Origin: a phage
Sequence record: PZ379075.1
Length of the DNA: 64,000 nucleotides
Strand: one strand, 5' to 3'
A program made the translations under genes and the position numbers. Every line of letters begins with the position of its first letter. Within the stretch, counting starts at the first letter, position 1. Of this stretch, positions 2,218 to 11,349 are shown piece after piece. The notes under the pieces were generated by a model. It saw nothing but the letters and a program-made list of their open reading frames with translations. It did not search any database and was not told where the DNA came from.

Positions 2218-2583
2218 ATGGGTGTTATCAAGTTTGTAGTGAAAGTATTTGTAGGCTTCTTTCTGGTTGTTCTCCTGTTAGGTGTCCTGCTGTCATCTAT
2301 GGGTAGCGTTAAGGCTGCAACATTCTCCCCTGATACGGTTGACGGTTTACAGTGTACCTATCTCGTAGAGAATTACGAAACTGGTAAACAGTCACCTAAA
2401 GTTATTATTTTGCATGTAAATGATTTTGATCATGTGCAATCAGATAACAAAGCTATTCTGCTGGTAAATGAAACTACCGGTAAACAAATCACGATAGATC
2501 ACTTGATGCGCTCATCGTTGACGCTCTTTGATGAGTCCATGAATGAAATTGAGTCCGGTAATGGTCAATGTGTAAATCCATAG
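2218..2583 (+). CDS. hypothetical membrane-anchored/secreted protein (121 aa)
   Basis: N-terminal hydrophobic stretch VGFFLVVLLLGVLLSSMGSVKA resembling signal anchor; ATG at 2218. Confidence 0.5.
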   Translation: MGVIKFVVKVFVGFFLVVLLLGVLLSSMGSVKAATFSPDTVDGLQCTYLVENYETGKQSPKVIILHVNDFDHVQSDNKAILLVNETTGKQITIDHLMRSSLTLFDESMNEIESGNGQCVNP

Positions 2584-2969
2584 GCTTAATCTTTCTCCTG
2601 TATTGTGCCGTAGTCATGCCTATGGTCATAATCTATCTGATGCTTTAAATCCTTCCTATAAGCCTCGCTATGAGGCTTTTTTCTTTTCTAAGGTGATTGT
2701 ATACCTTACTCCCTTTTAGCTCATTGTGATGCGTTATAGGCCGCTTGTTATCGCTTTACAAGCCTTTTCCTATGATGTATCACGTTCGCCCGCTCTTTTA
2801 CCTTCCTATAGTGAAAAAGTTTAAAATATTTTGTTTTACCCTATTGCATCCCTCACTGATTAATGTATACTTCATTTCATCGGGTACGATGTAAAACATA
2901 CAAGGCAAGGAAACTTGCCCCGCTCTTTAAAAATCAGGCTAGAAAGTGAAAATATTCTTAAAAAGAGTA

Positions 2970-2998
2970 TTGACACCGAAAACAGCCTGATATATAGT
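2970..2998 (+). promoter_or_regulatory. strong sigma70-like promoter (TTGACA - 17 nt - TATAGT)
   Basis: TTGACA at 2970-2975, spacer CCGAAAACAGCCTGATA, TATAGT at 2993-2998. Confidence 0.6.
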
Positions 2999-3602
2999 GA
3001 GCATAGTCAGCGATGACTTAAAAAATCCCGCTCTTTAAAAATATGATTTGTCTTACGGGTGGCGGCGACGTCATTACTATAAGGCGCTCAGTTAATCGGT
3101 AGAATTGATTCCTGATTCATACGTGACGCAGGCGGACAATAAGCAATATCAATAAGCCTTATTTGTTCGATACTTTCAAAAGATTAATGCTTGAAAGCGC
3201 ACTAGATTCCCTGAAAGACAAATCAGACTTATCATCTTGCCCTTTCGCATAGATTCACGCGAGATAAGGGAAAGGAATTAAAAGAAGATGATAAAAAGAG
3301 TTGCAAACGTGGTTAAAGTAGTCCATACTAACCACAAGTTAGCAAAACATCGCTAACTAGTTCCCAAATCAACGTATCGCGGGAAAGGTGGCACATAGTG
3401 CAGCGATTAGTTCAGGTGTAGGCGGCCTGTTAATGAATCAGTAAGCCTTCAATGTGACAGTGATTAGCAGACACTTTAAAAGGCTAAACGCTCTTTAACA
3501 ATATGAGTCATAAGTTAAGCCTCACCGCTTAATCTTCAATCAAATAAAGCTGATTGATATATCCTCCCAATAGCGGGAACGACGAAAAAGATTAAAAAGC
3601 GG

Positions 3603-3631
3603 TTGACAGCGAAAACAACATGATTCATAAT
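3603..3631 (+). promoter_or_regulatory. strong sigma70-like promoter (TTGACA - 17 nt - CATAAT), paralogue of promoter at 2970
   Basis: TTGACA at 3603-3608, spacer GCGAAAACAACATGATT nearly identical to promoter at 2970, -10 CATAAT at 3626-3631. Confidence 0.6.
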
Positions 3632-4552
3632 GAGCACTCACTAAGCAAATCATCGCTTCAGTGAAAAGCGTAACAACGGCTAACAGTTGCATAGTGTGAG
3701 AAAGCACACTGATAGATTTACCGCTCTTTAATAATTTAAACATTCTCCTATATCGGTTGAATATGCTTGATGATAATAACCATCGGAAAGCATACCAGAT
3801 AAAACGGCGTAAAACTCCCTAAATTATCAGGGTAAACAGTTTTACATTCCCTTACTGGAAACGTCACCATTGATAAACGGATTCATTGAGTACACGCAAA
3901 GACTTAAGCTAATCGCCCACGGTTAAGGGTAGCGGCGGTCATCGCTAACATGGTGCTACGGTGAAAGAAGTTAATCAGGGTAGGCAATCCCGACGAATTA
4001 ACGCTCAATTGAGAGCGGCGGTGAATGGTTAAAAAGTGGCAAATTGCTATTTAACAATAAGGTTTAGTGTGAACGTTTACGATGTGAACGGCTTGAGATT
4101 CATCTTATGATGAAAGTACATAGTCGGTTTATGTAGTAAACTTGCCGAAAGATATAAAACGTCGGAACATTAGACGGTCAATGACTCTTTCGCAATAGTA
4201 TCCCGTAGTGGGCGATGACTAGCGATTGAGAGTTGATATAAAAGGATAGGCGAGAGCGAAAGCAAAGTAAACGATATTGCCGACGGTTACAATAACGTAA
4301 CTAATTAGAGTCGGACGCACTGCCTTATTGTGATGATTGATCATCGCTATCAGGTCGGCTTCGTTTATAGCGACTAATTAAAGATACCAGATGAAACATC
4401 ACGGATAAGGGGGCGGCAAGGTTAACTCCTGATAAGACCGCCCCGCTTACCTATAACTACTTACAATGAGTGGTTATAGTTAAGTCAATAGTGACTTGAA
4501 TTGCTCATAGAGAGCGGGGCAATAGCGCCCTTACAATTGAAAGGTGAATATT

Positions 4553-5452
4553 ATGGCTAAAATCTTTACTCTGGTTAACGAATCTGGTTTTAATGCTCTG
4601 GCTAACAATATCCGTAGCAATAATGCAGCGATCAAACAAGATGTTTCTAACTTCCTGTTAGGTCATTTGCAGCACTTTCGTAGCAACGGTAAGAAGTTAG
4701 ATGTATTGCAGGCGGCGGTTGACTTCCTGTTAACCGAACGTTTCCGCGATATGGATGTTATTGCCACCGCGATCACTTTCTTAACTCCTATCAAGTTTAA
4801 CACTGATGCGTCAAATGGTCGTAAGAAGTGGATTAATCTGGAAGGTGAAGCGAAAGCTAAAGAAGATGCGAAAGAAGCGCAAATTAAAGCCAAAATGGAG
4901 CAAAACCGTGCCCGCTGGTCAAACGCTTTCGAAAACTTTGCATTAGGTCGTGCAATTGAAGTGGATAATCCTAACTTCTACAAAGGTTGCAATGACAACG
5001 TGGCGGCACACCTGCAAATTCCGGCGAAAAACAAGGAAGATTTTAATCAGGATATTTACGCTTTGGTTGAACGCTTGAATGCAATCCGTATTGAAGCCAA
5101 ATTACTGGCTGATGAGCGCAACGGCGCAACCAGCGATAACACTATCGCCCTGAGTGAAGAAGTTGGGAAGGTTAAAAAGTCCTTTGATTCACTCATCAAG
5201 AAAATCACGGCCTCGACGGTAGCGATCTCGGATGATTATCTGATGAACGCATCAAGCAAGGAATTAGAATCACTCGATTCATACGCTGATGAAATGGAAA
5301 AGACTGTTGCAGCTATGCAGGAGAAGTTAGAAAGTCTGCGCGGTCGTATCTCTTCAACGGTTGCTACCCGTACCGAACAAGCGGCGAAAGCAGAAGAGGA
5401 AGAAGTATTGCGTAAAGCGGCTGAAATTATGGCGGCACGTCAGGCGGCATAA
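4553..5452 (+). CDS. hypothetical protein with C-terminal coiled-coil character (about 300 aa)
   Basis: ORF 4544-5452; ATG at 4553 preceded by AAAGGTG; charged heptad-like C-terminus. Confidence 0.6.
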   Translation: MAKIFTLVNESGFNALANNIRSNNAAIKQDVSNFLLGHLQHFRSNGKKLDVLQAAVDFLLTERFRDMDVIATAITFLTPIKFNTDASNGRKKWINLEGEAKAKEDAKEAQIKAKMEQNRARWSNAFENFALGRAIEVDNPNFYKGCNDNVAAHLQIPAKNKEDFNQDIYALVERLNAIRIEAKLLADERNGATSDNTIALSEEVGKVKKSFDSLIKKITASTVAISDDYLMNASSKELESLDSYADEMEKTVAAMQEKLESLRGRISSTVATRTEQAAKAEEEEVLRKAAEIMAARQAA

Positions 5453-5476
5453 GTAAGACAATTTGAATAAACATAA

Positions 5477-5509
5477 GGCGCTATCTTAACGGGTAGCGCC
5501 TTTTCTTTT
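5477..5509 (+). terminator. rho-independent terminator
   Basis: GGCGCTA...TAGCGCC stem followed by TTTTCTTTT. Confidence 0.6.
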
Positions 5510-5554
5510 ATCAGTGCATTGATTCAGTGCATTAATCAAAGAATTTAATCAAAG

Positions 5555-6802: not shown

Positions 6803-6856
6803 AGCCGCCTTTGGGCGGCTTTTTGCGTTACCGCCTCCTTAATTGGAGGCTTTTTT
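6803..6856 (+). terminator. two tandem rho-independent terminators
   Basis: GCCGCC-TTTG-GGCGGC + TTTTT, then GCCTCC-TTAATT-GGAGGC + TTTTTT. Confidence 0.65.
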
Positions 6857-6882
6857 GTATCTATTATATAGGAAACCATGAA

Positions 6883-7695
6883 ATGAAAGCATTTGCATTG
6901 TCAGCTATTCTAGTTTTATCTGCCATTAGTGCCCCATCCTTTGCTCATTCTGACAAATGCTCACACTCTAAACAGTGTGAAGTCCAGCAGGGGCCGAAAG
7001 GTGATAAAGGAGAACAGGGTATTCAAGGCGAACAAGGTCCGAAAGGTGACAAGGGTGATCGCGGAGAGCAGGGCTTAAAAGGTGATACTGGATCGGCTGG
7101 CATCAATGGTAAAGATGGCATCAATGGTAAAGATGGCATTGATGGTAAAGATGGCATTGATGGTAAAGATGGCATCAATGGTAAAGATGGCATCAATGGT
7201 AAAGATGGCATTGATGGTAAAGATGGCATTGATGGTAAAGATGGCGCTCAAGGTGAAAAAGGTGATTCTGGTGCAGATGGTAAGAAAGGCGAAACTGGCC
7301 TAACTGGTGCAGCAGGTTTGAATGGCGTTGACGGATTAAATGGCAAAAATGGTAAAGATGCAGATATGTCTGCCGTTAATGCTAACGCCAAATCTATCAA
7401 AGCTCTGGAACAATCCACCAACAAACGTTTTGCTTCTTTGCAAAAACAAGTAGACCGTAACCGTGATCATGCCTCTGCTGGTATTTCTGGCGTGGCTGCA
7501 ATGGCTAACATCCCGCAAGTAAGTCAAGGATCTGCTTTCTCTGTTGGTGCTGGGGTAGGTGCTTACGATGGTGAATCTGCTCTTGCTATTGGTGTTAGTG
7601 CTCGTTTCAATGAAAACGTAGTAACTAAAGCATCAGTGGCAATGACTTCAGAGAGTGACGCTGTTCTGGGCGCTGGTGTAAGTTACGAGTGGTAA
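6883..7695 (+). CDS. secreted collagen-like repeat protein with YadA-like (trimeric autotransporter) C-terminal membrane anchor
   Basis: Signal peptide MKAFALSAILVLSAISAPSFA; about 50 Gly-X-Y triplets; C-terminal segment ending GAGVSYEW matches YadA-anchor beta-barrel signature. Confidence 0.65.
   Translation: MKAFALSAILVLSAISAPSFAHSDKCSHSKQCEVQQGPKGDKGEQGIQGEQGPKGDKGDRGEQGLKGDTGSAGINGKDGINGKDGIDGKDGIDGKDGINGKDGINGKDGIDGKDGIDGKDGAQGEKGDSGADGKKGETGLTGAAGLNGVDGLNGKNGKDADMSAVNANAKSIKALEQSTNKRFASLQKQVDRNRDHASAGISGVAAMANIPQVSQGSAFSVGAGVGAYDGESALAIGVSARFNENVVTKASVAMTSESDAVLGAGVSYEW
7100..7243 (+). repeat. Tandem 18-bp repeat GGCAT(C/T)(A/G)ATGGTAAAGAT x8 (encodes GI(N/D)GKD collagen units)
   Basis: Direct reading; causes spurious antisense ORFs 7023-7229 and 7082-7303. 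Confidence 0.85.
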
Positions 7696-7702
7696 GATAG
7701 TG

Positions 7703-7729
7703 CCTCTCCCGAAAGGGAGGGGTGTTTCT
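7703..7729 (+). terminator. rho-independent terminator
   Basis: CCTCTCCC-GAAA-GGGAGGGG hairpin plus T-rich tail. Confidence 0.6.
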
Positions 7730-7805
7730 ATAAGCATCTTTTCGAGGGTGTTTATTGAAACAACAAAACAGGAGGTAGCAAGTTCTGATAACAACGGCAC
7801 AGCTA

Positions 7806-8195
7806 ATGTTGACATTGACTATTTATTATGAGGCAGGGAATCAGCCAACCGCATGTAAGGCTTTAGTTGCGGATACCGTGATAAATAGAATGGCCCAACG
7901 AAAACTGACCGCTGAACAGGTGATAAGACAAAAGAACCAGTTTGAGTGGATTCCGGTACTATTAAAACAGGAGAAACCTTATAAACGTTATGTAAAGCTG
8001 ATTCGTGATAAAAATCCGATGACTAAGCAAGCCATTGGAGAAAGCGAGCGACTTGCTAAACGTGCCCTTAAGAAGAATTATGTTCCGCTGTACAGTGGGA
8101 CTTACTTTCAGAGTAAGAGCGAAGGGGTGCCAAAATGGTATGCCAATCCTATGTATTGTGGTGATTTAGTGTTCGATAATAGCTCTAGGGAATAA
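7806..8195 (+). CDS. SleB/CwlJ-like cell-wall hydrolase domain protein
   Basis: Motif IYYEAGNQ...ALVADTVINR resembles the EARGE...VxNR signature of the SleB-type hydrolase family; frame is open from 7779. Confidence 0.45.
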   Translation: MLTLTIYYEAGNQPTACKALVADTVINRMAQRKLTAEQVIRQKNQFEWIPVLLKQEKPYKRYVKLIRDKNPMTKQAIGESERLAKRALKKNYVPLYSGTYFQSKSEGVPKWYANPMYCGDLVFDNSSRE

Positions 8196-11273: not shown

Positions 11274-11349
11274 GCGCTCTTAGCTCAATGGATAGAGCAG
11301 TAGCCTTCTAAGCTATTGGTTACAGGTTCGAGTCCTGTAGGGCGCACCA
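11274..11349 (+). tRNA. tRNA-Arg (anticodon TCT)
   Basis: Hand-folded cloverleaf: acceptor GCGCTCT/AGGGCGC, D-stem GCTC/GAGC, anticodon loop CTTCTAA with TCT at 11307-11309, T-arm ACAGG-TTCGAGT-CCTGT, discriminator A, encoded CCA. Confidence 0.85.

Follow-up and report, generated by a model that had tools for sequence, protein, structure and literature searches.

In the 64,000-nucleotide (nt) stretch of phage DNA analysed here (record PZ379075.1; the whole stretch is called the window), positions 2590-4540 lie between two blocks of early genes and carry tandem promoters, repeated copies of one short motif and a long stretch of conserved, non-coding sequence. We propose that this is probably the early transcription-control and leader region of the phage, built like the front of a ribosomal RNA (rRNA) operon and working by boxA/Nus anti-termination. 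An earlier reading made from the letters alone (the sequence-only reading) had pointed to the promoters and to the motif, and had offered abundant early noncoding RNAs, small peptides or a promoter/terminator decoy as explanations of the region.

By its database matches the window belongs to a Kuravirus, that is, a phiEco32-like podophage: the 2.3 kb around the region match Shigella phage ShigP1 at 100% identity and Escherichia phage SkaterBoy (Bas90) at 99%; identity is 90-99% to Kuraviruses and 85-97% to dozens of phiEco32-like podophages (Kuravirus and relatives, subfamily Gordonclarkvirinae). A more sensitive search found the region in 99 phage records, most of which have no annotation there. 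Positions 2590-4540 correspond to the known "spacer" that separates the early genes of Kuraviruses, and in which the SU10 paper puts three sigma-70 promoters, "like phage phiEco32" (PMC4281155). Conservation and RNA structure were compared in an alignment of 17 genomes, consisting of the window phage and 16 relatives, and the features discussed below are collected in Table 1.

The repeated motif, CGCTCTTTAA, was found at all four positions listed by the sequence-only reading (2921, 3029, 3489 and 3722), with every copy on the plus strand; what that reading had missed was its likeness to boxA. The gamma-proteobacterial boxA consensus, GYTCTTTAANA, is the RNA site of NusB/NusE (PMC5725501), and all four copies match it exactly, at 11 of 11 consensus positions. 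The window holds four matches to this consensus, all of them in the spacer and on the plus strand, where 0.61 would be expected, and none of 100 shuffles reached four. On the strength of this match we take the motif to be boxA, a presumptive loading site for the Nus factors of the host. All 16 relatives keep three to five boxA copies while the sequences around them, hairpins included, differ. A comparison of 41 distinct copies shows conservation of the flanking C and of the N-A-A-T behind the motif as well, and positions farther out are variable. In the complete genomes of phiEco32 and SU7, matches of the GCTCTTTAA type are confined to this spacer, and in SU7 and Bas86 the boxA copy at the equivalent place has an unbroken run of 19 bases in common with rrnB. 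The boxA cores stay largely free of pairing, both when folded locally and in the consensus structure, and covariation does not support the few pairs that are predicted; boxA 4 in particular is largely unpaired in the consensus structure, and the pairings that touch it do not covary. A fifth, degenerate boxA-like element (GCTATTTAACA, 4046-4056) has a C to A change at consensus position 4 and is conserved in relatives; it is probably not a working NusB/NusE site.

The two promoters that had been singled out at 2970 and 3603, here P2 and P3, proved to be as similar as claimed. Each matches the sigma-70 consensus at 11 of 12 positions, and they are 82% identical over 34 nt, with CGAAAACA common to both. 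Both hexamer pairs are retained in 17 of 17 aligned genomes, and promoter-like sites as a whole are no more frequent in the first 8 kb than chance predicts (12 observed, 18.3 expected). Since S2 Table of the SU10 paper lists the sequences of both twin promoters (PMC4281155), the promoters themselves had been published before, as predictions. Farther upstream lies a weak candidate, P1, at whose position relatives have other promoters. P1 overlaps an exact TAATGTATA at 2861-2869, the core of the promoters read by the phage sigma factor gp36. The window contains five exact copies of this core (2861, 34616, 40913, 40985 and 50816; 0.72 expected), and because the copy at 2861 overlaps the P1 -10 element the leader might be a product of the middle phase as well; not all relatives keep this copy. 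Our scan found no intrinsic terminator on the plus strand between 2688 and 5475. The terminator that precedes this interval is also annotated at that position in 4E8, SU10 and SU7.

Promoters, hairpins and boxA copies stand in a recurrent order. Measured from the predicted starts, boxA copy 2 lies at +26 and copy 4 at +86, and copy 1 at about +44 from its weak candidate promoter, the earlier remark having put some motif copies at transcript +30 to +95. Copies 1, 2 and 4 are each directly preceded by a small predicted hairpin. This is the order of the E. coli rrnB leader, in which a hairpin (boxB) is followed by TGCTCTTTAACAA (boxA) and then by TGTGTGGG (boxC). The hairpins that precede boxA vary in sequence among genomes yet remain hairpins, and the one before boxA 4 (3692-3698/3705-3711) has three pairs with compensatory changes. 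Behind boxA 3 a hairpin lies about 12 nt to the 3' side. In phiEco32 and SU10 every boxA copy has its own promoter; in the window genome the promoter of copy 3 is weakened and set apart from boxA 3 by an insert. A loose likeness to the GU-rich boxC follows copy 2 only (TGTCTTACGGGTGG, compared with the rrnB element given above), and no boxC-like element was seen after copies 1, 3 and 4.

The 5' half of the leader is modular. About half of the relatives lack domain D0 (180 nt). The unrelated 65.7-kb phage PJNS034 carries it at 75% identity, and its closing helix there shows two compensatory changes. In the hairpin at 3229-3294, ATCATCTT/AAGATGAT is replaced by ATCGTCTT/AAGACGAT in three relatives.

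The region is non-coding and yet strongly constrained. Between 2590 and 4540 the longest open reading frames (ORFs) of the plus strand have 49, 38, 33 and 32 amino acids (aa), as expected from the earlier statement that none reaches 60 aa, and the one 67-aa ORF of the minus strand (3540-3743) is intact in just 2 of the 16 relatives. Conserved coding small ORFs, which the sequence-only reading had named as evidence that would speak against it, were looked for on either strand, and none of the ten ORFs tested was intact in more than half of the relatives (most in one to five of 16). Variable sites fall on the three codon phases as 155/145/163 in the leader, compared with 48/31/158 in the next gene, so that no 3-nt periodicity is seen, and each of the three frames is rich in stop codons, with no open stretch above 42 codons. 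In the alignment 3484-4552 is about 90% identical with essentially no insertions or deletions, and the leader is as conserved as the flanking genes (in KBNP1711, 90.3% compared with 88% and 83%).

Positions 3674-4531 are predicted to form a large structured RNA. For the segment 3630-4560 of the 17 genomes RNAalifold predicted 245 base pairs, 71-73 of them with compensatory changes on both sides. Column-shuffled alignments gave -109.8 ± 6.5 kcal/mol and 10.5 ± 3.3 compensatory pairs, compared with -249.8 and 73 observed (z about -21). The minus strand folded much worse (-177.3). The plus-strand structure has 427 G-U cells, and moving it to the minus strand gave 472 broken cells compared with 57; this and the poorer minus-strand fold indicate that the folded molecule is the plus-strand transcript. 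A covariance model with a formal pair count was applied to sub-domain 3860-3988 of domain D1, the alignment of which took in one weak extra match. There 98.5% of cells were paired, compared with 27-51% with slid partners, and 17 pairs were doubly changed, compared with at most five; none of 500 shuffles equalled the observed values. The interior of domain D1 holds about 12 helices, mostly with compensatory changes. No T run stands behind any of the 3' hairpins (4332-4531), and the ribosome binding site (RBS) and the ATG at 4553 come directly after this row. Of the first interpretation, the noncoding RNA therefore stands as a molecule, on three non-coding tests and on strong covariation of the transcribed strand, and the small peptides, for which neither a conserved small ORF nor codon periodicity was found, do not.

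This RNA resembles no family that we could find. The covariance-model search that had been suggested as a check identified no known Rfam family: at the gathering threshold Rfam 15 gave no match in the leader and a single transfer RNA (tRNA) in the whole window, and with E values up to 10 the best matches in 2590-4600 reached 10-20 bits, compared with thresholds of 34-66 (GOLLD, ROOL, OLE, HEARO, 6S, RNase P and leaders included). The leader product has no detectable similarity to rRNA. A blastn search of the leader against 5,426 E. coli genomes gave no match, which argues that it is not host or prophage sequence. An nhmmer profile of the 3' RNA and the covariance model of 3860-3988 found no match in the leaders of PJNS034, TacPo2, the IMG/VR phage and 7-11, all described below, and D1 and domain D2 are thus found only in the Kuravirus/Suseptimavirus group (Gordonclarkvirinae). 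Some known elements were considered by eye and set aside: a GGCGGT... sequence is present but not conserved as an ops element of RfaH, and the GGA triplets sit in stems, not in loops of the CsrA type. At the 3' end of the leader, the Shine-Dalgarno region GGTGAAT (4543-4549) is complementary to ATTTACC (3716-3722, abutting boxA 4), a possible 7-bp pairing; in TH34 and TH42 the Shine-Dalgarno region is GGTAAAT and the pairing with ATTTACC is retained. This pairing, which shows no double compensation, could serve as a long-range occlusion of the RBS.

Table 1. Features in and around the early leader region (positions in the window).
Feature	Positions	Strand	Remarks
Intrinsic terminator	2660-2688	+	8-bp stem and T run; ends the upstream early operon (promoter 636, genes 708-2583)
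Candidate promoter P1	2844-2871	+	Weak -35 TTGCAT, -10 TATACT; below the scan threshold
Hairpin GGCAAG-GAAA-CTTGCC	2904-2919	+	Two nt 5' of boxA 1, boxB-like position; other hairpin sequences in relatives
boxA copy 1	2922-2932	+	GCTCTTTAAAA; consensus match
Promoter P2, TTGACA-17-TATAGT	2970-2998	+	A/T-rich upstream; predicted start about 3005; identical to SU10 '73996'
5' hairpin AGTCA-GCGA-TGACT	3005-3018	+	At the P2 transcript start; conserved in the alignment
boxA copy 2	3030-3040	+	GCTCTTTAAAA; consensus match
Predicted RNA domain D0	3044-3225	+	14-bp long-range closing helix 3044-3059/3210-3225; begins 4 nt after boxA 2
Hairpin, then A-rich tract	3229-3294	+	In 17 of 17 genomes
Variable insert	3301-3480	+	In a subset of relatives
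Weakened promoter copy, TTGCAA-17-CATACT	3301-3329	+	Intact version (SU10 '73668') directly before boxA 3 in phiEco32 and SU10
boxA copy 3	3490-3500	+	GCTCTTTAACA; with flank (GCTCTTTAACAAT) 13 nt common to rrnB boxA
Promoter P3, TTGACA-17-CATAAT	3603-3631	+	Twin of P2; A-rich upstream tract; predicted start about 3638; equals SU10 '73511'
Two leader hairpins	3674-3711	+	Second (3692-3698 with 3705-3711) boxB-like, before boxA 4
boxA copy 4	3723-3733	+	GCTCTTTAATA; invariant across all relatives
Predicted RNA domain D1	3735-4033	+	Closing helix 3735-3748/4020-4033, from 2 nt after boxA 4
Predicted hairpin	4034-4052	+	Would sequester part of the degenerate boxA GCTATTTAACA
Predicted RNA domain D2	4054-4331	+	16-bp closing helix 4054-4071/4316-4331; inner helices rich in compensatory changes
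Row of predicted 3' hairpins	4332-4531	+	For example 4410-4416/4438-4444 and 4451-4460/4470-4479, five covarying pairs each
RBS (AAAGGTG) and first post-leader gene	4541-5452	+	ATG 4553; 299 aa; PHROG 13018
Strong intrinsic terminator	5475-5510	+	Directly after the first post-leader gene

The same design recurs in other phages. PJNS034 and the Pantoea phage TacPo2 have a promoter, a boxA and a gene-free leader of about 480 nt. Both phages (leaders at 3850-4822 in PJNS034 and 2450-3170 in TacPo2) come from an unclassified 65-kb group; with the Kuraviruses it has D0 and a P3-like promoter in common, and the remaining leader is different. A 45.7-kb contig of IMG/VR has at 1800-2700 two consensus promoters, each with a boxA within about 10-15 nt, and a third, degenerate boxA, in a gene-free stretch of about 0.9 kb adjoining tRNA genes. 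When IMG/VR was scanned for GCTCTTTAA lying 10-40 nt behind a perfect sigma-70 promoter, at least 108 loci were obtained, compared with 18 for the reversed 9-mer and 102 for its reverse complement; given this last figure, we relied on the flanking consensus and not on the counts. In the 84 distinct cases among the matches listed, the next bases are A/C, A (83%), A (77%) and T (69%), as in true boxA, these four bases lying outside the search pattern and showing no preference in both controls. About half of 79 distinct matches among those listed have a hairpin ending within 6 nt of boxA, and the median gap to the next ORF is 200 nt, compared with 44 nt in a very small control. A distant relative, Salmonella phage 7-11, has at its genome end about 1.05 kb of gene-free sequence (6865-7917, minus strand), which precedes the first early gene; this leader holds no boxA and has no detectable similarity to the Kuravirus RNA.

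How could such a region work? We suggest that RNA polymerase of the host, starting at tandem sigma-70 promoters, would within about 25-90 nt of each transcribe a small hairpin and a perfect boxA, and that the transcripts would then cross 0.9-1.7 kb of ribosome-free folded RNA (D0, D1, D2 and hairpins) into the early gene at 4553. By analogy with boxA in E. coli, NusB/NusE(S10) would bind boxA on the nascent RNA (PMC5725501, PMC6614801), and NusA, NusG and SuhB would join them in a Rho-resistant elongation complex of the rrn type. Without anti-termination, a long untranslated RNA of this kind would be an obvious target for Rho. The 5' arms of the closing helices start 2-4 nt after boxA 2 and boxA 4, from which it follows that a boxA held by the polymerase may help the domains to close, as has been proposed for 16S rRNA. 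Because the folded RNA is under strong purifying selection it is likely to have a function of its own, and conservation equal to that of the neighbouring genes argues for more than a spacer; the RNA could be trans-acting, released by processing, or a cis-acting leader. Since the motif matches boxA it points to anti-termination, the opposite of a terminator decoy, and the promoter/terminator decoy of the sequence-only reading is not the simplest reading of the region.

Several points weigh against the anti-termination proposal. In the window genome copy 1 has only a weak sigma-70 promoter and copy 3 has no good promoter of its own, no copy has a clear boxC on its 3' side, and the start sites of all promoters are sequence predictions. 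The folding-aid idea is drawn solely from geometry. Complexes of the rrn type counter Rho and not intrinsic terminators, so that the strong terminator at 5475 is left unexplained by the model. Nor are the raw IMG/VR counts a clean test, given the 102 loci of the reverse complement.

A bolder extension, which we offer as a tentative possibility, is that Kuraviruses make an undescribed structured RNA of about 0.9-1.5 kb by means of copied rRNA-operon machinery (boxA, Nus factors and promoters in tandem, perhaps with RNase III cutting the helices that close the domains), that the released domains act in trans early, in host take-over or against defences, and that virulent and uncultivated phages widely escape Rho through a boxA after early promoters, a route so far overlooked.

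Other explanations were weighed and are taken here in falling order of probability. It is unlikely that these are nut sites of the lambda type, at which boxA would work only with a phage N-like protein that binds the neighbouring hairpins. A boxA of this extended sequence is common at the nut sites of lambdoid prophages, several hairpins have GNRA-like loops (GAAA and GCGA), the hairpin of boxA 3 lies 3' of it, and the many small early proteins would be candidate N-like factors. However, the hairpin 5' of boxA in copies 1, 2 and 4 follows the rrn order and not that of lambda, and hairpin sequences and loops vary between copies and genomes, which makes a single sequence-specific RNA-binding protein unlikely; no N-like protein is known in the phage group, although no systematic search was made.

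We find it improbable that the region is in the first place a decoy, in which many boxA copies soak up NusB/S10 and thereby cripple host rRNA synthesis or block lambdoid phages. Genomes with three to five boxA copies behind very strong promoters would suit this role, and boxA RNA, when over-expressed, is reported to compete for NusB. For a decoy there would be no need of boxA just after each promoter, or of closing helices right behind boxA, and it leaves the conserved 860-nt structure unexplained; it is also compatible with boxA/Nus anti-termination, the two not being exclusive.

Little weight goes to a replication element, with the RNA serving as a primer precursor or origin activator, like ColE1 RNA II or the T7 primary origin, which is activated by transcription. 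That strong promoters are followed by a large RNA structure, conserved and specific to one strand, would fit, and no replication origin for the phage group turned up in the literature covered. On the other hand, a repeat scan brought out no iterons, DnaA boxes or AT-rich unwinding element, the RNA continues straight into a translated gene, and the 5' half is modular and partly dispensable. Very unlikely is a DNA-level operator, that is, a 14-nt double-stranded site at which a regulator from phage or host would control the early promoters: the motif is repeated and invariant near promoters, but all copies have one orientation, their distance of 26-86 nt downstream of the starts is larger and more variable than a classical operator would allow, the motif is not palindromic, and its agreement with boxA, an RNA site, covers 11 of 11 consensus positions and extends beyond them. 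Small proteins that annotation has overlooked can hardly be the explanation, for although record CHD5UKE1 annotates ten short ORFs in the region, the ten ORFs tested are not conserved, codon periodicity is lacking and stops are dense (longest open stretch 42 codons).

Set against known systems, the region resembles in its order of parts the E. coli rrn leader, whose complex, as compared here, comprises NusA/B/E/G, SuhB and S4, and whose promoters carry UP elements. Like it, the phage region has strong sigma-70 promoters in tandem, A/T-rich sequence upstream of them, a hairpin and then boxA in the first 30-90 nt, boxA identity over up to 13-19 nt, and a long untranslated, highly structured product. 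In both, boxA stands just 5' of one arm of a long-range helix that encloses a domain, which in rrn is the RNase III stem around 16S (PMC6614801). Unlike rrn, the region is phage-borne, has three to five cassettes in series, gives a product that is not rRNA, has no clear boxC, and its RNA continues into protein-coding genes. With the lambdoid nut sites it would share the use by a phage of a host boxA for read-through of early genes, the use of Nus factors being suggested here by analogy, and the same extended boxA occurs in many prophage contigs. Unlike those sites, it has the reversed order of hairpin and boxA (copies 1, 2 and 4) and several boxA copies, one per promoter, in a lytic phage without an immunity region and with no known N homologue, for which no systematic search was made.

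Among non-rRNA cellular targets of boxA are the leaders of CRISPR arrays. In the 5' untranslated region of suhB, a perfect GYTCTTTAANA in the leader protects untranslated or poorly translated RNA from Rho (PMC5725501). Unlike these single host copies, the boxA copies here belong to a virulent phage, where they form an array that precedes a large structured RNA. A different likeness is offered by T7, another podophage in which several very strong host promoters near one genome end drive the early genes. The T7 early cluster consists of the strong host promoters A1, A2 and A3, and the early RNA is processed by RNase III; by comparison, the long-range helices of the Kuravirus leader could be RNase III sites. 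Neither a boxA array nor a structured leader of kilobase scale is known to us from T7. In size (several hundred nt to about 1 kb) and in its many covarying helices the RNA is like GOLLD, ROOL, OLE, HEARO and raiA, with GOLLD and ROOL also sharing the phage context; unlike all of these it is a 5' leader fused to an mRNA with boxA in front, and it has no Rfam 15 match.

A full-text search, whose coverage did not extend to the main phiEco32 papers, found no paper in which phiEco32 or Kuravirus is connected with boxA, with signals for anti-termination or with non-coding RNA. Temperate phages outside the lambdoid group that depend on Nus are already known. Neither the boxA array nor the large structured leader RNA appears to have been described, and we rate the finding as probable Nus/boxA anti-termination joined to a new RNA family.

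The finding bears on a wider question. Rho silences foreign and untranslated transcription, and it has been unclear so far how phages without an RNA polymerase of their own, and without a known N or Q, read long early units. In the 7-11 paper the anti-termination strategy "remains to be defined". A host-type boxA after the early promoters is a concrete candidate answer as to how such phages may escape Rho. Large structured RNAs are rare and several have unusual functions, and the Kuravirus RNA sits in a common group of coliphages. Members of this group, the BASEL phages Bas86-Bas94, are reported to be highly resistant to the defence systems tested, and they grow on E. coli K-12, which makes genetics, structure probing and partner searches feasible. 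The compact promoter-hairpin-boxA cassettes may also serve to express long non-coding RNAs without Rho termination.

Some observations concern the surroundings of the leader. Family searches gave no functional clue to the neighbouring early proteins. For two small ones, encoded at 2218-2583 ('terminase', 121 aa) and 1606-1872 ('polymerase', 88 aa), the labels in public records look unreliable, because these are names of PHROG families only and no Pfam domain backs them. SU7 (2150-2350), Bas86, TH34 and TH42 have an ORF of about 66 aa (SU7_114) in the variable 5' part of the spacer, where the window has none. The sole Rfam and ARAGORN match within the window is a tRNA-Arg (anticodon TCT) at 11274-11349 on the plus strand. 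Finally, a 294-aa ORF in the early region (6811-7695, plus strand) has a signal-like N-terminus and long collagen-like G-x-y repeats (GINGKDG...); its C-terminus, ...GAGVSYEW, resembles the membrane anchor of trimeric autotransporter adhesins, and its homologue in Bas90 is labelled 'tail protein'.

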